From the NCBI RefSeq assembly GCF_044647545.1, contig NZ_CP172818.1: a stretch of 64,000 bases of DNA. One strand, 5' to 3'. The DNA comes from Escherichia coli (GTDB lineage Bacteria > Pseudomonadota > Gammaproteobacteria > Enterobacterales > Enterobacteriaceae). Positions 15,511-63,641 of this stretch are shown piece after piece. Below the pieces are notes generated by a model that searched no databases, was not told the DNA's origin, and saw only the letters and a program-made list of their open reading frames with translations. Within the stretch, counting starts at the first letter, position 1. Every line of letters begins with the position of its first letter. A program made the position numbers and the translations under genes.

Positions 15511-15964
15511 TAACTACACTCGATGTCTTTAGAATAAAAGACAATACGAATCGCACTTTATCAATTTTCACTTAAAGTATGAACTGGATATCTTTATTCA
15601 TAAGAACTATTCATCAACAGCGTATAGAGGCGGTTATGTAAAACCACTCATTAGCCTCAAAACAAAGACAAACTTCCAGATTTATTACTTAATCAATGAA
15701 TAACAAGCTTAAAAAATACACTGTTATTCTAAAGAAAAAATTAACAGGCATTAATTAATATTAAAAAAAATAATATATTAAAATTTCTTAACGGTTTAAG
15801 GATTATACAAATAACACTTTGATTAAATTTGATTTTTTGTATCGATAATTGTGAACTTATCTGGCATGGAGAACTATTTTGAACATGAGGTGTTATGTGG
15901 ATATGTTGCTTATTACAAGTACAGCTAATATAAAAACTTGAGAAAGAGATAACGGGTTATATGG
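15511..15964. other. AT-rich non-coding spacer between the CRISPR remnant and the intact array (possible fossil leader)
   Basis: No credible ORFs; strongly AT-rich; sits on the leader side of the degenerate repeats by analogy with the intact array. Confidence 0.4.
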
Positions 15965-16367
15965 TGGTTCATCCCCGCTGGCGCGGGGAACACGTCTTTT
16001 TGACCGGCCGGTAAATCGTCTGCCTGCGGTTTATCCCCGCTGGCGCGGGGAACACAAACCATTCTCGCAATCAAGGACTATTCCTAGACGGTTTATCCCC
16101 GCTGGCGCGGGGAACACGGTCGCAGGGAATACAAAGCCGTGCATCCTGCTCGGTTTATCCCCGCTGGCGCGGGGAACACTGGCTCTGCAACAGCAGCACT
16201 ATGACCCCGTCGGTTTATCCCCGCTGGCGCGGGGAACACGAAAAGCTTATGATCGTTAATGCCGCAAACACCGGTTTATCCCCGCTGGCGCGGGGAACAC
16301 ATTACACCTATGTGCGAGCGCCCGGTTTTTGCCGCTAGCGGTTTATCCCCGCTGGCGCGGGGAACAC
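15965..16367 (-). CRISPR. Type I-E CRISPR array, 7 repeats and 6 spacers, no adjacent cas genes
   Basis: Repeat cggtttatccccgctggcgcggggaacac (29 bp) at 16027, 16089, 16151, 16211, 16272 and 16339, plus a degenerate terminal copy at about 15965; spacers 31-38 bp; orientation inferred from the AT-rich leader on the high-coordinate side. Confidence 0.95.
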
Positions 16368-21641: not shown

Positions 21642-21853
21642 TTAGGTTGAAAAGACGATGGAATAACCAGGACGGGAAAGCAGTATACCCGAACATGACC
21701 TGTGCCACAAACTTTCATTATCCCTCCTCTTCGCCAGCGCACTATTGAAATCAGGAGTGAGAAAATAGCCCCTTTGGGGTAAATGTTTTTGACGCAAATC
21801 AAGCGCTTGTCATTTAAAAAATGACACAAATGGCGCTTGACCGCGTAATTCCC

Positions 21854-22645
21854 TTAGAGATCAATTTCCTGCCGTTTTACCTGTTGCCAGACTTCTTCCA
21901 TTGTTTCGAGGTCAACACCTGTCATTTCCAGTCCACGCGCGGCAACAATACGCTCCACTTCGCGAAAACGACGCTCGAATTTTTCGTTCGCTTTTTGCAA
22001 TGCGATTTCCGCTTTTGTCCCTAAATGACGAGCCAGATTGACCGTGGCAAACAGCAGGTCACCCATTTCCTCCTCCAGTTTAGCCTGGTCGACAACAGCC
22101 TGCTGCGCCTCGTACATCACCTCGTCGATCTCTTCGTAGACTTTATCGACTACCGGACCAAGCGTCGTCCAGTCGAAGCCAACGTTGGCGCAACGTTTCT
22201 GGATTTTTTGCGCACGCATTAAAGCCGGTAAACTACGAGGAATATCATCCAGCGCCGAATGCTGTGCTTTCTGCGCGCGTTCTTCGGTTTTGATTTGCTC
22301 CCAACGGGCGAGCACTTCACTACTGTTTTCGGCAGAACTGTCAGCAAAAACATGCGGATGGCGACGCTCTAATTTATCGCTAATAGCAGCGCAAATATCA
22401 TTAAAGTCAAAGCGCCCTTCTTCCTGAGCCATTTGTGCGTAAAACACCACCTGGAACAGCAGATCGCCCAGTTCACCGCGCAGATCGTCAAAATCTTCAC
22501 GGGCGATGGCGTCCAGCACCTCGTAGGTTTCTTCAAGGGTGTAAGGCGCAATGGTGGCAAATGTCTGCTCTTTATCCCACGGGCAGCCGTTTTCCGGATC
22601 GCGCAGGCGCTGCATAATAGTGAGCAAACGGTCGATTTGATTCAT
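21854..22645 (-). CDS. mazG: nucleoside triphosphate pyrophosphohydrolase
   Basis: 263-aa ORF recognised as MazG; directly downstream of mazF. Confidence 0.93.
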   Translation of the reverse strand: MNQIDRLLTIMQRLRDPENGCPWDKEQTFATIAPYTLEETYEVLDAIAREDFDDLRGELGDLLFQVVFYAQMAQEEGRFDFNDICAAISDKLERRHPHVFADSSAENSSEVLARWEQIKTEERAQKAQHSALDDIPRSLPALMRAQKIQKRCANVGFDWTTLGPVVDKVYEEIDEVMYEAQQAVVDQAKLEEEMGDLLFATVNLARHLGTKAEIALQKANEKFERRFREVERIVAARGLEMTGVDLETMEEVWQQVKRQEIDL

Positions 22646-22716
22646 TGAATTGTCCTGAAAATTGCGGGTCTGTCAGGTGGAAACCTGTGACCAGAATAGA
22701 AGTGAGTTAGTAACAC

Positions 22717-23052
22717 CTACCCAATCAGCACGTTAATTTTGGCTTTAATGAGTTGTAATTCCTCTGGGGCAACTGTTCCTTTCTTCGTTGCTCCTCTTGC
22801 CCGCCAGGCGATACTTTTTACCTGATCAGCTAACGCTACGCCATCACGTTCCTGACCGGATAGAACAACTTCGAACGGATATCCTTTTGATTGCGTTGTA
22901 CAAGGAACACACAGACACATACCTGTTTTGTTGTTGTACATGAACGGACTCAGGACAACAGCCGGACGATGTCCGGCTTGCTCGCTACCTTTTGTCGGGT
23001 CAAAATCAACCCAAATCAGATCGCCCGTATCGGGTACGTATCGGCTTACCAT
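22717..23052 (-). CDS. mazF: mRNA interferase toxin MazF (ACA-specific endoribonuclease)
   Basis: 111-aa ORF beginning [36 protein letters not shown]; PemK/MazF fold. Confidence 0.95.
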   Translation of the reverse strand: MVSRYVPDTGDLIWVDFDPTKGSEQAGHRPAVVLSPFMYNNKTGMCLCVPCTTQSKGYPFEVVLSGQERDGVALADQVKSIAWRARGATKKGTVAPEELQLIKAKINVLIG

Positions 23053-23300
23053 TACCAGACTTCCTTATCTTTCGGCTCCCCCCAGTCGATATTCTCGTGG
23101 AGGTTTTCCGGCGTGATGTCGTTGACCAGTTCAGCAAGCGTAAATACGGGCTCTTTACGCACTGGCTCAATAATTAATTTTCCATCCACCAGGTCAATCT
23201 TCACTTCATCATCAATATTCAGATTGAGCGCCTGCATTAACGTAGCCGGGATCCGCACTGCAGGAGAATTTCCCCAACGCTTTACGCTACTGTGGATCAT
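23052..23300 (-). CDS. mazE: antitoxin MazE
   Basis: 82-aa ORF beginning [27 protein letters not shown] (AbrB/SpoVT-like); shares its stop position with the mazF start. Confidence 0.95.
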
Positions 23301-23317
23301 AACCCTTTCCTCAAACC

Positions 23318-23366
23318 GCTATCATATGTAGATACAGTATATATCAATCTACATTGTAGATACGAA
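23318..23366 (-). promoter_or_regulatory. mazEF promoter/operator region with palindromic repeats
   Basis: tgtagatac occurs twice around an AT-rich core immediately upstream of mazE; the known autoregulatory palindrome lies here. Confidence 0.5.
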
Positions 23367-23377
23367 CAAGTTTCGGC

Positions 23378-25612
23378 CTAACTCCCGTGCAACCGACGCG
23401 CGTCGATAACATCCGGCACCTGGTTGAGTTTACCCAGCACGCGGCCCAGCACTTGCAGGTTGTAAATCTCAATGGTCATGTCGATGGTCGCCAGTTGCTG
23501 TTTGGTGTCGCTACGGCTGGCAACGCCAAGTACGTTCACCTTCTCGTTGGCGAGAATGGTCGTGATATCACGTAACAACCCACTACGATCATTAGCCACC
23601 ACGCGGACCACCAGCGAATATCCGGCGGAGTAGCTCTCGCCCCATACCGCGTCAACAATGCGTTCTGGCGCATGGGAGCGCAGTTCCGCCAGTTGTTCGC
23701 AATCGGCGCGGTGTACTGAAATACCGCGTCCCTGGGTAATGAAGCCGACAATCTCATCTCCAGGAATCGGCTGGCAGCAGCGCGCGATGTGGTGCATCAG
23801 GTTACCGACCCCTTCTACCACCACACGACCGTTATCTTTACTGCGGTTTTGCGGCGTGTAGCTTTTTTGCTGAAGCTGTTTCAGCGCGGCGGCATCCTGC
23901 TCTTCGGCACTCGGCTTATTAAATTGCGATTGCAGGAAGTTCACCATCTGATTGAGACGGATATCCCCGCCACCAATTGCCGCCAGCAACTCGTCGACAT
24001 CATTGAAGTTGTAACGCGGCAGCAGATGTTTTTCTGCTTCTTTCAGGCTGATCCCCAGATGTTCCAGCTCGTCGTCAAGGATTTGCCGCCCAGCCAGAAT
24101 GTTTTTGTCACGGTCCTGTTTACGGAACCAGGCGTGAATTTTCGAACGCCCACGGCTGGTTGTGACGTAACCGAGATTTGGGTTTAACCAGTCACGGCTG
24201 GGGTTCGGCTGTTTCTGGGTGATAATTTCAATCTGGTCGCCCATCTGCAGCTGGTAGGTGAACGGCACAATGCGCCCGCCAATTTTTGCCCCGATGCAGC
24301 GGTGTCCGACATCACTGTGGATGTGGTAAGCGAAGTCCAGCGGTGTTGATCCCGCAGGCAAATCAACGACATCACCTTTCGGCGTAAAGACGTACACCCG
24401 GTCGTCAAAGACCTGGCTGCGTACTTCGTCGAGCATTTCGCCGGAATCAGCCATCTCTTCCTGCCACGCAATCAGTTTACGCAGCCAGGCAATTCGGTCT
24501 TCATGTCCCGAACGTGCGCCGCCAGCTGCCGCGCCCTCTTTATATTTCCAGTGCGCAGCAACACCCAACTCTGCATCTTCATGCATCTGTTTGGTGCGGA
24601 TTTGGATCTCAACGGTTTTGCCACCCGGCCCCAGAACCACGGTATGAATAGACTGATAACCGTTTGGTTTCGGGTTAGCGACGTAATCGTCGAACTCATC
24701 CGGCAGGTGGCGATAGTGAGTGTGCACTATCCCCAGTGCGGCATAACAATCCTGTAAACGCTCGGCGACAATACGTACCGCACGCACATCAAACAGCTCA
24801 TCGAAGGCGAGGTTCTTTTTCTGCATTTTGCGCCAGATGCTGTAGATGTGTTTCGGTCGACCATACACTTCAGCTTTAACGCCTTCAGCTTTCATCTCAG
24901 CGCGCAGATGGCCGACAAACTCTTCGATATAGTGTTCGCGGTCGAGACGGCGTTCATGCAGCAGTTTTGCGATGCGTTTGTATTCGGTCGGGTGGAGATA
25001 ACGGAAGCAGTAATCTTCCAGCTCCCATTTCAGTTGCCCAATCCCAAGACGGTTCGCCAACGGCGCGTAGATATTGGTGCACTCTTTTGCCGCCAGTACG
25101 CGTTCATCTTCCGGCGCGTCTTTTACTTCGCGCAGATGAGCAATACGCTCTGCCAGTTTGATGACCACGCAGCGGAAATCATCGACCATCGCCAATAACA
25201 TCCGGCGAACGTTATCGACCTGTTCGGAGGAAACAGAATCGGTATGCGTCGCTTTCAGCTGGCGGATCGCCGCCATATCACGCACGCCGTGAATAAGGTT
25301 AACGACCGACTTACCGACGCTCTCACGCAGCACATCTTCGCTGACTACGTTGGCATCCGCCAGAGGGAACAGCAGCGCCGCCCGCAGCGTGTCAATGTCC
25401 ATACTTAATGTCGAGAGGATCTCCACCATCTCAACACCACGCCACAATAACAGACTGGCATCCGGATGCCCCTGCGTCTGTTGCAGACAATATGCCCAGG
25501 TTTCGGCTAAGCACTCACACGACTTCTGGCTGGTAATACCCAGACTTGCGATCCATTTTTCCGGATCAAATTCACCAGCCTTATTGATATGTGCACTTCT
25601 TACCGCAACCAT
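23378..25612 (-). CDS. relA: (p)ppGpp synthetase I
   Basis: 744-aa ORF; recognised RelA sequence with HD-like, synthetase, TGS and ACT regions. Confidence 0.97.
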   Translation of the reverse strand: MVAVRSAHINKAGEFDPEKWIASLGITSQKSCECLAETWAYCLQQTQGHPDASLLLWRGVEMVEILSTLSMDIDTLRAALLFPLADANVVSEDVLRESVGKSVVNLIHGVRDMAAIRQLKATHTDSVSSEQVDNVRRMLLAMVDDFRCVVIKLAERIAHLREVKDAPEDERVLAAKECTNIYAPLANRLGIGQLKWELEDYCFRYLHPTEYKRIAKLLHERRLDREHYIEEFVGHLRAEMKAEGVKAEVYGRPKHIYSIWRKMQKKNLAFDELFDVRAVRIVAERLQDCYAALGIVHTHYRHLPDEFDDYVANPKPNGYQSIHTVVLGPGGKTVEIQIRTKQMHEDAELGVAAHWKYKEGAAAGGARSGHEDRIAWLRKLIAWQEEMADSGEMLDEVRSQVFDDRVYVFTPKGDVVDLPAGSTPLDFAYHIHSDVGHRCIGAKIGGRIVPFTYQLQMGDQIEIITQKQPNPSRDWLNPNLGYVTTSRGRSKIHAWFRKQDRDKNILAGRQILDDELEHLGISLKEAEKHLLPRYNFNDVDELLAAIGGGDIRLNQMVNFLQSQFNKPSAEEQDAAALKQLQQKSYTPQNRSKDNGRVVVEGVGNLMHHIARCCQPIPGDEIVGFITQGRGISVHRADCEQLAELRSHAPERIVDAVWGESYSAGYSLVVRVVANDRSGLLRDITTILANEKVNVLGVASRSDTKQQLATIDMTIEIYNLQVLGRVLGKLNQVPDVIDARRLHGS

Positions 25613-25659
25613 CGTCCTCTCCTTTAGGGACCAGACCTGCCGAAATCGGCAAATCGCAA

Positions 25660-26961
25660 CTATTTAACGCGCGAGAAAAGTACCATCGATTCCAGATGTC
25701 CCGTGTGTGGGAACATATCCAGCATCGCCAGTCGCGCAATGGTATATCCTGCTTTTAATAACGCTTCGCTATCCCGAGCCAGCGTTGCAGGGTTACAGGA
25801 TACATAAACTATACGAATAGGTTCCAGTTTTATAATTTGCTGCATAACACCTGCGGCACCTGCTCGCGCCGGGTCCAACAACACTTTATCGAAGCCGTTT
25901 TTCGCCCACGGCTGCTTTGTGACATCTTCTTCAAGATTTTCGTGATAAAACGTCACATTGTGTAAGCCATTAAGACGCGCATTCTGCTGGCCTTTTTCAA
26001 CCAGCGCCGGAACGCCTTCTACACCGACCACACTGGCAGCTTGTGTCGCCAATGGCAGTGTAAAGTTGCCCATACCGCAGAACAGATCCAGTACGCGATC
26101 TTCAGGTTGCACATCCAGCCATTCCAACGCACGCGCTACCATTTTTTGGTTCACACCCGCATTGACCTGAATAAAATCGCGCGGGCTAAAAGTTAAGCGC
26201 AACCCATTTGAGTCATACCAGGGCATCTCACCAGAGACGGTTTCGAGTATCTCACTATCGGGGGCGAGATACAGATCCAGTCCTTCAGAATGCGAAAAGC
26301 ATTCCAGTTTTTCGCGATCTGCCGAACTTAGCGGTGCGGTATGGCGCAAAATCATTAGCGTGCCGCTGGTTGCCTGTACCAGTTCAACATGACCAAGATG
26401 GCGCATAGCTTGTAAGCTGCCCAGGCATGCCCTGACTTTGGGCAGCAATGCTTCAAGTTGGGGCACTAAAATGGGGCATTGTTTAACGTCGACAATGTCA
26501 CTGGAGCCCGCTTTGCGAAACCCCATCTGAAGTTGCTGTGTTTTCGGTAAGTAGTTCAGACTTAAACGCGCGCGACGGCGATAGCCCCAGGGAACATCGG
26601 CGATCACTTCAGAGACTTCGTGTTTCATTAATCGGGCGAGTGCCGCACTTTTGCTTCGCTGCTGTAAATCCACACTGGCGTGTTGTTGCTGACAGCCGCC
26701 GCATACGCCAAAATGAGGACAGCGTGGCGTTTCGCGTTCCGGACTATCGCTTAACCGGCGTACGACTTTAGCGCGGGCATACTGTTTTTTATCTTCAGTA
26801 ACAGTAACTTCCGCGTTTTCCTGCGGCAATAATCCGGGGATAAATAATGTTTTGCCGTTATGTCGCGCCACACCCTGACCAAAAGAGTCGAGGTCGTTGA
26901 CTGAAACGGTTATGATCTGACGCGTCGTCGTGCGTCGTTTTGCAGAGTAGAATTGCGCCAT
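25660..26961 (-). CDS. rlmD: 23S rRNA (uracil1939-C5)-methyltransferase
   Basis: 433-aa ORF; TRAM N-terminus, Cys cluster ([11 protein letters not shown]), SAM-dependent methyltransferase C-terminus. Confidence 0.92.
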
Positions 26962-36073: not shown

Positions 36074-36118
36074 AAAGCAACCTCAATAAGAAAAACTGCC
36101 GCGAAGGATAGCAGGAAT

Positions 36119-36483
36119 AAAAAAAGGGAGCACTGTATTCACAGTGCTCCCGGTTCGTTTCGCAGCATTCCAGCTACTTTTGTTGCTCCCTGCTCATCCT
36201 TGACAACTTTTCCTCTGGCCTTGCGGCCAATCGTTCATCCTGAACTATTGCTTCCTGCTCACACCACCCCGATGTGATACTTCATCCTGAAGTGTCCCTG
36301 GCCTTCCTGACCCACCGAATCATCCTGACCGGTTCTCATTCTCCATCCTGGAGGTGTCCTTTAACGCGTCCTGCGTCATCCTCTTCGCTTCATCCAGAAG
36401 CCTTTCCCTGAAACACCATCCTGGTGTGTCCTTCAGAAGTGTCATCATCCTGATGTTCACTTCGTTGTCTGACTCCCTGTCGA
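36119..36483 (-). ncRNA. csrB: CsrB small RNA (CsrA-sequestering)
   Basis: On the + strand, at least 6 perfect CATCCTG (CAGGAUG in the transcript) plus several variant GGA motifs within about 360 nt; terminator gggagcactgtgaatacagtgctccc + U-run at the 3' end (36119-36151). Confidence 0.9.
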
Positions 36484-54704: not shown

Positions 54705-54910
54705 ACTTCCTGAGCCGGAACGAAAAGTTTTATCGGAATGCGTGTTCTGGTGAACTTTTGGCTTACGGTTGTGATGTTGTGTTGTTGTGTTTGCAATTGG
54801 TCTGCGATTCAGACCATGGTAGCAAAGCTACCTTTTTTCACTTCCTGTACATTTACCCTGTCTGTCCATAGTGATTAATGTAGCACCGCCTAATTGCGGT
54901 GCTTTTTTTT
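54705..54910 (+). ncRNA. gcvB: GcvB small RNA
   Basis: acttcctgagccggaacgaaaag...; GU-rich seed gttgtgatgttgtgttgttgtgtttgc; terminator gcaccgcctaattgcggtgc + T8; divergent from gcvA. Confidence 0.92.
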
Positions 54911-59232: not shown

Positions 59233-59309
<77 letters not shown>

Positions 59310-59342
59310 ATTAAAATTTGATGAAGTAAAGCAGTACGGTGA

Positions 59343-59419
<77 letters not shown>

Positions 59420-59452
59420 ATCAAAATTTAATGAAGTAAAGTAGTACGGTGA

Positions 59453-59529
<77 letters not shown>

Positions 59530-62500
59530 ATTATCTGAATACCCAAGTTTTCACAATCGTTTTTTTTATTTAAATCTTTCCTGAATCACAAAGTTTTTTA
59601 TCTCCCTTCCTCGAATAATCAATTACACTAAATTATCCCTTTCTGTATACTCAATCCCCGATATCCTTGTAATGATATTTTCATTACATCTAAATTCCCA
59701 ACGTTCAACTAAACACATCCACCCCAAAACATTTCTTCTTCAATCACCTAATAAACCCCTCATCCACAACTCCCCCCATTGATGATCAACACATCCATCA
59801 TCACAAATATTTATACTAATAAATCTCCACTCAAAAAAACAAAAAACAATGATGAATCGACTCATAAAATATCTTCAATTATACAAATGAATCCACTTTT
59901 CACAACTAATCTTTTTTCAAAACTAAAACTCAACATCAAAACAATAACCTTCCCATTTTTCCAATATCGTACCAACACAATACGTTTACCTTTAACCCAC
60001 CATCACTCACCCATACCATTTTCATCCATGATACACCGATATTTTCATCCCGAAATAATCCAATGATAAATTCCCAACCATTTGAATTAATCCCAACCAT
60101 TATTACAATAATACTATTCCTCCACGAAATCAATATTTCTATCCCCTCCCGAATCTCGATATTATTTTCACACCAACACAATAACTTCCCCTATAACAAT
60201 CTTCCCAACCCAAATAATCTCTAATCATATTCTATTTAACAATCCCACATTATTCTTAATAATAAATTAAAATTATTCTCTCTACAACCCAAAACACTCT
60301 AAAACACTACCAAACATTTTTATACACACTCACTTCAAAAACCACCCCAAAAATACTTACTGTATTTATATTTTAAATTATGAATTTCTTTAACCATCAC
60401 CCCTGATGATAAACCGAAACACACATAAATTTTTTCAATTCAAATCAACCCACCCATCACCAACAACCAAACAACATCCACACATATCTAAACTAAATTA
60501 TCCCCTCACTTTACGATTTCAACAATAAATCACAACTTACCAACATATATACTAAAAAATCAAATAATTACCCATTTTTTTCAACACATTCCCAATTTCC
60601 CTCTCACACTTTTGAAATAAAATAACAACATCTCTTCCCACATCCAATCCTGTACCCTCCTACCTAACAAAAAACGAATCCTACTCAAAATCCGATTTTC
60701 CAATAAACCGACTTACCAACACCAATAAAAACAACTTTTCCCTACAAATTTATACTTTAATTAAAACGAATCAAAATATCAATAACTCTCTACTTAATTC
60801 TTACATAAAATTTTAATAATATATCTTATTCATTTTTATTCTCCCTGATTAATATTTTTAATTACACTCACAAACCGTAACCCCATATATAATTTTTCTC
60901 ACCCACCATTCAAGAATACCCTCCCCCTCCGTTCCATAACATCCCCCCATAACCATTTCCTTCATGAATTAACACTTAAAATTCATCAAAAGATAACCAA
61001 TACAAACAATCTACCAAAAAAACAACATCACTCCTACATCAATTCAATATTTTATTCAATACTAATTGAATTAACAATATTCTTTAATGATTTACATCCC
61101 AATCTAACAATAAACAATTATATTCATACTATGGATTTACAAAACTATACGATATCTTCTAACTTATGATTAAAATTACTCATTAAATCATAAGATCTTA
61201 TCAAATTAAATTCATATCATTATACTACTACTTTTTCTTTTTTTATTTTAACCGATGTAACTACTCATTAAAAACAAAATCACTATGATTTCATCTAACA
61301 TAACAAATTATCCTTAACCACATTTTATATTCTTCTTCCACCAACTTCCTCGTTATGAGATTACATAATAACACCATCTCTTTTATCTTAAACAAATCCC
61401 ATTATACTACCCCCCTCATTTTTTATAATCAAAACTTCAAATATTCCCTATTTTTTACATCAAAAACATTAAACATTAAAAACAAATATTATCACACGAT
61501 CAATAATCTATTCTTTTCAATAATACATCACATCTATATTATCCATTCATTTTATCTTTTATATTTTATAAACCATTTACTACCATTCAATATTCACATT
61601 CAAACAGTACCTAAAATCTTTCCAAGTTTTCTTAATCCCTACACACTTCTTATCAAATCCATATCTAAATAAAATGTAATACATCTTTTACACCAAATCT
61701 CCCCAAAATCCCATTTACAATATTTCCTTCAAACAGTATTAAAAACATCCATCACATATCCATTATTATCCATATCCACCAACATGACTTTATACCGATA
61801 ATATTTATATTTTATCAATTTAATATAATTCCCCACTCTTTTTATTCTCCTCAATCAACCCATATCGATTTTAAACTAAAGATACCAATTATCCAGATTT
61901 AATATTCTCTTTACCACAATCCTTAACATCTCTCTCTTCACTCTATTTATCAACGTATATCCCTATACTATCCTCATACTTCACTACAATACTCTTCACC
62001 ACTCATCAGTTAAATTTAAAATACAACAACACAAAGTAATAAATAAAAAATACCACTTCGACACACACCTATTCAACTTTCTTCCACCAAACCCAAACTA
62101 ATAAATTGAATCAACCCATAAATCCCATCTTCACCCCATAACAAACACGAATCCATTCATAAATCATAAACAAACACATACTACAAATAAAAAAAATCCA
62201 ACTCCTACCCCCAATAATGATTAACACCCCAAATAACAATCTTTATACTTTTCTTTTACATACATCGATACACCACCCACCACCAACATACTAATCATCA
62301 TTTCTTTCCATTTTCCCCCAAACCACAATACCATTCTCTACACCCATAAAATCATCCATAATACTCTCCCCCAATCACACCTAAACCGACGTAAACAAAA
62401 ATCACCAGATTTTAACCAAAAAACTCACTCCAACTCATAAAAAATAACCGAACAACCGAATATATCATCCAATGACATGAAAATTAAAAACCCAATAAAA

Positions 62501-63641
62501 GAATGATCAACCAAACCATCATCACAATCATTAATAACACAACCTATAAAAACTAATATCTAACTAAATTAACGTCTTTTTAACACCATAATAACCCACA
62601 ACAATTCCTCTAAACCTTATTTAACTGATCCCAAATATTTATCGACATTTACACACCAATAATCTCTTTTAAATAAAATTCTCCCAGACACCCATAAAAC
62701 AATAAAGAAAAACATATTTATCCTCTTTTTTTTAATAACCAAGAATTTACCAAACAAACATAATAACAAACAAACAAACCAAAACAATAAACAATATTTT
62801 TATTATGAAACCAAAATAATTAATCCATATCATCATCTAAACATCCACCTACATCACACATACAACAACAAGAAATAAACCTCATCTAAAAAAAATCCAC
62901 TTTCTTTTATTTCATATAAATTTATATATAAAATTAATACTACGAATAAAATATATTTTCTCTAAATACATATTTAAAACAACAATACTCAATTTATGAA
63001 TTAAAATTCTTTCTCAAAAATCATAATCACAATATTCTTTTTTTTATACATAAAACAAAAAAAATAATCATCATAACTTAAATTAAATAATCTCACTTAT
63101 AAAACCGATAACTTTATTTTTTAATAATAAAAAGCATAACAATGAATTCAATTATTTAAAACAAATAAAATTCATCAAATTAAACTAAATTATAATAACA
63201 CAATATTTACAATTTATCAAAAAAAATTATTATTTTACCAAAAAATAAAACAAAAAACAAAAATTTAATTTTTCAAATACACAAACAACAACAAAACAAC
63301 AAATACATAATAATATAACGGGTGTTTTTTTGTTTCTTGTCTCCCATAAAAGAGCCAGCCATCTCAGACGACATTCCATATTTTTTTTTAACCACCCACC
63401 CAGAAATATAACCTCTCCATTCACACTTACACAATTATTTCATACTTATATCAATACTCCCAAAAAAAACAACACTCAAATAATAATACTCAAACAATAA
63501 CATACAAAATAACAACAAACAAACGAATTTTTAATTAAAAACTTTATTTTCAACGACATTCAAAATCCACATCATCACAAAACATCTAATATTCATAAAT
63601 TTATCTATCAACGAAATATAAATTCATAATAAATAAAAACA
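59530..63641. other. ~4.1 kb compositionally anomalous, non-coding block (G-depleted on + strand), identity unknown
   Basis: Sampled 60-nt lines contain 0-4 G against roughly equal A, C and T; almost no ORFs on either strand; starts the base after the metV CCA and ends the base before the amiC stop codon. Confidence 0.9.

Follow-up and report, generated by a model that had tools for sequence, protein, structure and literature searches.

The chromosomal mazEF toxin–antitoxin module of Escherichia coli at its usual position between relA and mazG

Introduction

The mazEF (chpA) module of Escherichia coli is among the most studied of all toxin–antitoxin systems. [quoted passage not shown] 2003, as cited in PMC4803016 and PMC5888573). 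A catalytic Arg/Thr pair is conserved in MazF toxins (PMC10893535), and an E24A variant of MazF has been used as an inactive mutant (PMC5888573). [quoted passage not shown] The DNA that MazE binds was described as an "alternating palindrome" by Marianovsky et al. 2001, according to the account given in PMC4803016, where the same study is cited for the placement of promoters P2 and P3 in the spacer between relA and mazE. This "cab" operator has since been defined experimentally by Zorzini et al. 2015 (PMC4333400), with three sites for MazE dimers and with MazE binding demonstrated; site a is the one of highest affinity (PMC4333400, PMC4803016).

Two further features of the locus have been published. 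The ACA-rich mazF message is cut by MazF itself, which constitutes a negative feedback (PMC5888573), and an antisense RNA, aMEF, arises from a promoter inside mazF on the opposite strand (PMC8749433). The physiological role of mazEF is disputed, with programmed death, stasis, phage defence or no role at all having been put forward (PMC7167474).

Here, we describe a mazEF locus found in a 64-kb stretch of E. coli DNA (hereafter the window). A sequence-only reading had proposed a mazEF module nested between relA and mazG, with an autoregulatory operator upstream of mazE and a link to (p)ppGpp synthesis. From the follow-up analysis reported below, we conclude that the locus is the chromosomal mazEF (chpA) type II toxin–antitoxin module of E. 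coli in its usual relA–mazE–mazF–mazG position, and we put the probability of this at about 0.97.

Results

Open reading frame coordinates place the four genes of the locus on the minus strand in the order relA, mazE, mazF, mazG. The gene for the GTP diphosphokinase RelA (23378–25612, minus strand; 744 amino acids) was recognized by the NCBIfam equivalog model NF008124 (1678 bits) and by the Pfam models HD_4, RelA_SpoT, TGS and ACT. It is separated by a 77-nt spacer (23301–23377, minus strand), which contains the mazEF promoter–operator region, from mazE (23052–23300, minus strand; 82 amino acids). The toxin gene mazF follows (22717–23052, minus strand; 111 amino acids) and, after a 71-nt spacer (22646–22716, minus strand), mazG (21854–22645, minus strand), which encodes a nucleoside triphosphate pyrophosphohydrolase of 263 amino acids (TIGR00444, 418 bits; NF007113, 370 bits; two PF03819 stretches). 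Both spacers were read directly from the sequence. No terminator-like site was predicted on the minus strand in either of them, nor was any significant RNA structure seen in the mazF–mazG spacer (z = −0.58).

The proposed overlap of mazE and mazF at position 23052 was borne out: the two genes meet in a TAATG junction, in which the mazE stop codon TAA (23054–23052) and the mazF start codon ATG (23052–23050) have the A at 23052 in common. To judge from this layout, the two-gene order, with the antitoxin first and a one-base overlap, is an arrangement for translational coupling as in type II toxin–antitoxin modules. The proposed position between relA and mazG was likewise confirmed, both by the same-strand open reading frames and by the RefSeq annotation of identical DNA. 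Several complete E. coli genomes, one of them named as ST648, match positions 22600–23500 (901 bases) with 100% identity, and the RefSeq labels on the identical DNA are mazF, mazE, relA and mazG. Over the longer interval 21800–25700 there are zero differences from E. coli strain FDAARGOS_497. The locus is surrounded by housekeeping genes, namely eno, pyrG, relA and rlmD.

Assignment of the two small open reading frames to the MazE and MazF families, as the sequence-only reading had it, was upheld by matches to solved structures and by family models whose cut-offs were well exceeded. MazE is 100% identical over its 82 amino acids to E. coli MazE in PDB entries 1MVF (chain D) and 1UB4 (chain C). 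It scored 52.9 bits against Pfam PF04014 (MazE_antitoxin; cut-off 24.7) and 196.2 bits against the NCBIfam equivalog NF007312 (cut-off 113), the latter match covering residues 1–82 of 82. Its layout is that of a DNA-binding N terminus of the AbrB/SpoVT type followed by a C-terminal tail that binds MazF. [quoted passage not shown]

MazF (the M9T allele, WP_000254750.1) is identical at 110 of 111 positions to E. coli MazF in PDB entry 3NFC (chain A), with M9T as the sole difference, and shows the same 110/111 identity to the solved E. coli MazF chains 5CK9_A and 1UB4_A. Scores were 85 bits against PF02452 (PemK_toxin; cut-off 23.1; residues 9–109) and 226.4 bits against the "endoribonuclease MazF" equivalog NF007386 (cut-off 120; residues 1–111 of 111). 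Given this identity to solved chains, the fold is the SH3-like barrel of the CcdB/MazF type. By alignment, Glu-24, Arg-29 and Thr-52 are present and are invariant among the homologues. Arg-29 aligns with Arg-25 of Bacillus subtilis MazF, and the gap placed by BLAST leaves Thr-52 not exactly on B. subtilis Thr-48, which we take to be its equivalent from the published structures. From the 99% identity to the characterized protein we infer that the MazF encoded here is an ACA-specific, ribosome-independent endoribonuclease.

Upstream of mazE, the sequence-only reading had identified palindromic repeats and had placed the autoregulatory operator at 23318–23366. The 64-kb window has exactly two copies of TGTAGATAC, at 23327–23335 and 23355–23363 (plus strand), both of them upstream of mazE; about 0.13 copies would be expected by chance. 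The location and the repeat therefore stood, but the description of the two copies as palindromic did not: the two are direct repeats, with a distance of 28 bp, and do not form a palindrome with each other. The palindrome is supplied by an inverted arm at the centre, ATCTACA(T) (23347–23354; the ATCTACAT arm), which pairs with either copy of TGTAGATAC. When the 77-nt spacer was shuffled with its dinucleotides preserved, a three-arm layout with arms of at least 7 nt appeared in 1 of 20,000 shuffles.

The interpretation of this region as the autoregulatory operator proved correct, in that it coincides with the published cab operator. The oligonucleotide of Zorzini et al. 2015, an "alternating palindrome" with three sites for MazE dimers, matched at 49 of 51 positions to 23316–23366 on the minus strand; the two mismatches are terminal, the first close to the 5′ end and the other at the 3′ end. 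With the site sequences given in PMC4333400, all three sites could be placed on the minus strand. Site c (GTATCTACAATGTAGATTG; 23345–23363) is made up of the upstream GTATCTACA arm and the central TGTAGAT arm, site a (TTGATATATACTGT; 23334–23347) has an ATATAT core, and site b (ATATACTGTATCTACATAT; 23324–23342) includes the downstream GTATCTACA arm. Of the two repeat copies first noticed, one thus falls in site c and the other in site b, with the strongest site, a, in between. Both the palindrome arms and the core of site a are identical in the K-12-like, UTI89 and O157:H7 alleles, and allele differences within the span of the cab oligonucleotide are found near its ends only (at 23366, and at 23318–23319 in UTI89 and O157:H7). 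A scan with the sigma-70 consensus returned only one weak candidate, which overlaps the start codon of mazE, with no convincing site in the operator and none matching P2 or P3.

The distribution of the mazEF cassette (22717–23377) was established over 5,426 complete E. coli genomes, of which 4,418 carry it. Where present it is always chromosomal, with one copy in the typical genome, and no match was found at the DNA level on E. coli plasmids among these genomes. In the other 1,008 genomes (18.6%), mazEF is missing and a 95-nt spacer is all that separates relA from mazG; examples are O25:H4 strains of the ST131 type (such as O25:H4 CU568-3) and NRZ14408. RefSeq annotates mazG of O25:H4 CU568-3 as a frameshifted pseudogene. 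Absence of mazEF from the entire B2 phylogroup was considered and ruled out, since UTI89 has the module and the O25:H4 strains are without it. In UTI89 (NC_007946.1, 3065213–3065873), mazEF lies between relA and mazG and encodes the T9 allele of MazF, which contradicts the citation of this strain in PMC7167474 as an example lacking these systems.

Alignment of genomes with and without mazEF gave the boundaries of the cassette at base resolution. Its left edge falls at the final base of the relA stop codon, which reads TAG when the cassette is present and TAA when it is absent. The whole promoter–operator is therefore part of the cassette, and nothing corresponding to the 77-nt relA–mazE spacer is seen in mazEF-less genomes. 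Its right edge is reached about 42 nt before mazG starts, these ∼42 nt being common to the mazEF-less genomes. At the empty site, 53 nt unrelated to the cassette stand between relA and the shared sequence. They contain a perfect 12-bp hairpin, GCUGGAUAUGGC-GUCA-GCCGUAUCCAGC, and after it a second hairpin (−33.3 kcal/mol, z = −5.8), and could represent a REP-like element or a terminator or attenuator of relA.

One disrupted copy was seen in strain SW07163 (NZ_CM129852.1), in which an IS1 element is located 33 nt upstream of mazF, with only the last 18 nt of mazE left, and is followed by a truncated xni. Here, mazF is without an adjacent mazE or relA because IS1 cuts the module, and a further partial match at another place in the chromosome points to the module having been split by an IS1-mediated rearrangement.

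For the ACA content of the genes, depletion in mazF and relA had been proposed as a check, and it was found to be absent. The mazF gene is instead rich in ACA, with 9 occurrences (26.8 per kb, against 12–15 per kb for the window). This compares with 4.5 expected by codon resampling (z = +2.7) and 9.2 by synonymous shuffling. The remaining genes were close to expectation: 36 ACA in relA against about 33, 2 in mazE against about 3, and 10 in mazG against about 10–11. The counts for mazE and mazF equal the published ones (2 and 9, respectively; PMC5888573), and the ACA richness of mazF fits the published self-cleavage by MazF.

Elsewhere, the window is nearly identical to FDAARGOS_497 outside two regions, with single mismatches at 15780 and 33803. 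A type I-E CRISPR array with seven copies of CGGTTTATCCCCGCTGGCGCGGGGAACAC and six spacers is located at 15965–16367 (plus strand), between ygcE and queE. Compared with FDAARGOS_497, whose annotated array measures 1,251 bp, the array region is shorter by 848 bp and its spacer content is different; no cas genes were found within the window. Non-coding genes expected of this chromosomal region were present, namely those for the small RNAs CsrB (36116–36475, minus strand; 383 bits) and GcvB (54705–54910, plus strand; 199 bits) and three tandem, identical tRNA-Met(CAT) genes (59233–59529, plus strand), which by their position are presumably metZWV.

Directly after the third tRNA-Met gene begins a stretch of about 4.1 kb (59531–63627, plus strand) with extreme depletion of G (GC skew about −0.8, GC content 14–35%). 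It is a near-perfect subsequence of the 5.55-kb island that extends in FDAARGOS_497 from the third tRNA-Met gene to amiC: 880 of the 998 G residues of the reference (88%) are missing, as are 315 T, 227 C and 39 A, and the mismatches number only 23. The stretch contains no open reading frame of at least 200 amino acids, and the five genes that the reference has there are destroyed. As such, it occurs in none of the 5,426 complete E. coli genomes. It looks like an artefact of data or assembly, or a deliberate alteration, rather than biology.

Discussion

Judged by every family-defining feature that can be tested on sequence, the locus is a true member of E. coli mazEF, and no observation speaks against this identification. 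Its proteins, their structures, the operator and the genomic context have all been published already, and the locus itself is a textbook, ordinary one. What the analysis adds is a tally of genomes with and without the cassette (present in 4,418 of 5,426 complete genomes, always on the chromosome), the boundaries of the cassette at base resolution, the lack of ACA depletion in mazF or relA, and the presence of mazEF in UTI89, a strain listed in one review as lacking such systems. Beyond correct annotation, this matters little.

A mechanism for the module can be proposed from the near-identity of its proteins to characterized ones and from the literature (PMC4803016, PMC4333400, PMC5888573). MazE dimers would bind operator sites c, a and b, which overlap promoters P2 and P3, and transcription would thereby be repressed. 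MazF would strengthen repression and operator binding at balanced ratios and, when in excess, relieve or abolish them. In the MazF2–MazE2–MazF2 complex, the disordered C-terminal tail of MazE would block the MazF dimer. Proteolysis of MazE by ClpAP or Lon would then free MazF to cut RNA at ACA, its targets including its own ACA-rich message, so that a negative feedback would result. Downstream of mazF is mazG, for which co-transcription has been reported. The cassette itself is best regarded as a self-contained unit with its own promoter–operator, lodged between relA and mazG.

Whether this copy works, and what for, can be weighed against two other explanations. The one amino acid by which it differs from K-12 MazF could be taken as a sign that the copy is decaying or inactive owing to M9T. 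We consider this highly improbable: mazE and mazF are both full length, Glu-24, Arg-29 and Thr-52 are intact, and the antitoxin, the palindrome arms of the operator and the core of site a are unchanged. Position 9 is occupied by Thr, Met, Ser or Ala among the homologues, so M9T is best seen as a neutral polymorphism, and it was rejected as an inactivating change on the same ground; the T9 allele is moreover shared with UTI89 and FDAARGOS_497. A different proposal assigns the module anti-phage abortive infection as its main role, in place of a function in the stringent response. An increase in P1 infection after deletion of mazEF, as cited in PMC7167474, and the modification of MazF during T4 infection (PMC4803016) are in keeping with such a role, as is the patchy distribution among strains, which is typical of defence genes. 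MazE, MazF and MazG, however, match no defence-system model in PADLOC-DB, and the locus lies in no defence island, having eno, pyrG, relA and rlmD as neighbours. Abortive infection as the main role thus appears unlikely, though with a better claim than loss of function.

The meaning of the position between relA and mazG is a more evenly balanced matter. The sequence-only reading had held that the arrangement links an mRNA endoribonuclease to (p)ppGpp synthesis and to MazG. The physical linkage of mazEF with relA and mazG is beyond doubt, but a functional one is contested in the literature (PMC7167474), and 18.6% of complete genomes have no mazEF. It could be that the position is without functional meaning and that mazEF is a horizontally acquired addiction cassette, which landed in the relA–mazG spacer or replaced part of it. 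That explanation contests only the claim of a functional link and leaves the identification of mazEF untouched. It draws on the 1,008 of 5,426 complete genomes in which relA and mazG are neighbours without mazEF, on the promoter and operator lying inside the cassette boundary, and on the empty site, where 53 unrelated nucleotides that include a 12-bp hairpin take the place of the cassette. Plasmid-borne relatives also exist, with MazF 71–74% identical and the same one-base overlap, some of them beside partition genes, and insertion independent of relA and mazG function has already been argued in PMC7167474. Set against this, Gross et al. 2006, in the summary provided by PMC4803016, reported that mazG is co-transcribed with mazEF, that the MazEF complex inhibits MazG and that MazG lowers ppGpp. 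There is, in addition, no terminator-like site between the genes, and the cassette is fixed at one site, in single copy and off E. coli plasmids, which implies a long vertical residence. On this evidence, we regard a position without functional meaning as having roughly an even chance of being right.

Among known systems, the closest is E. coli K-12 mazEF (chpAI/chpAK), which agrees with the window in the genes, their order and strand, in the one-base overlap, in the lengths of the spacers and in the operator, and has an identical MazE. In K-12-derived strains, the mazEF DNA is 98.0–98.3% identical to the window. The window differs from K-12 by MazF M9T, by C/T at 23370 and T/C at 23366 (in the spacer upstream of the palindrome) and by a few synonymous changes.

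More distant are the mazEF homologues on plasmids of Enterobacterales, found on Citrobacter freundii pF1917-3, Providencia rettgeri p06-1619-1, Rahnella aceris pPlas1 and a Pantoea dispersa megaplasmid. [quoted passage not shown] Unlike the mazEF of the window, they do not lie between relA and mazG, and their repeats are arranged differently. The Citrobacter and Providencia modules adjoin parA/parG, and hok is also nearby on the Providencia plasmid. In the 100 nt upstream of mazE that were examined, the plasmid homologues have related GTATC(T/A/G)ACA inverted repeats: C. freundii has TGTAGATACA/TGTATCTACA, P. rettgeri has ATCAACA-A-TGTTGAT and R. aceris has GTATCAACAA/TTGTTGATAC. Within the half-site, the central base co-varies with its dyad partner, as can be seen from ATCAACA-A-TGTTGAT in Providencia versus ATCTACA-A-TGTAGAT in the window. 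Such co-changing dyad partners in Providencia and Rahnella may run against the older view that operator structure counts over sequence. Taken together, these comparisons allow a tentative proposal, which we hold at somewhat less than even odds: that the cassette is a plasmid-derived, horizontally acquired addiction module whose adjacency to relA and mazG is a historical accident, and that a GTATC-N-ACA half-site is recognized sequence-specifically across the MazE subfamily. Either, if true, would refine a well-studied system only slightly.

Further removed still are E. coli chpBIK (ChpS/ChpB), pemIK of R100 and kis–kid of R1, which share with the module described here the MazF/PemK toxin fold family and an AbrB-type antitoxin. 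The proteins of the window matched the ChpB and ChpS equivalog models weakly (55 and 35 bits, against cut-offs of 129 and 101, respectively), and the match of MazF to Kid (PDB entry 1M1F) was likewise weak (E = 8e-9). As the scores are far below the cut-offs, chpBIK, pemIK and kis–kid are paralogous systems at other loci.
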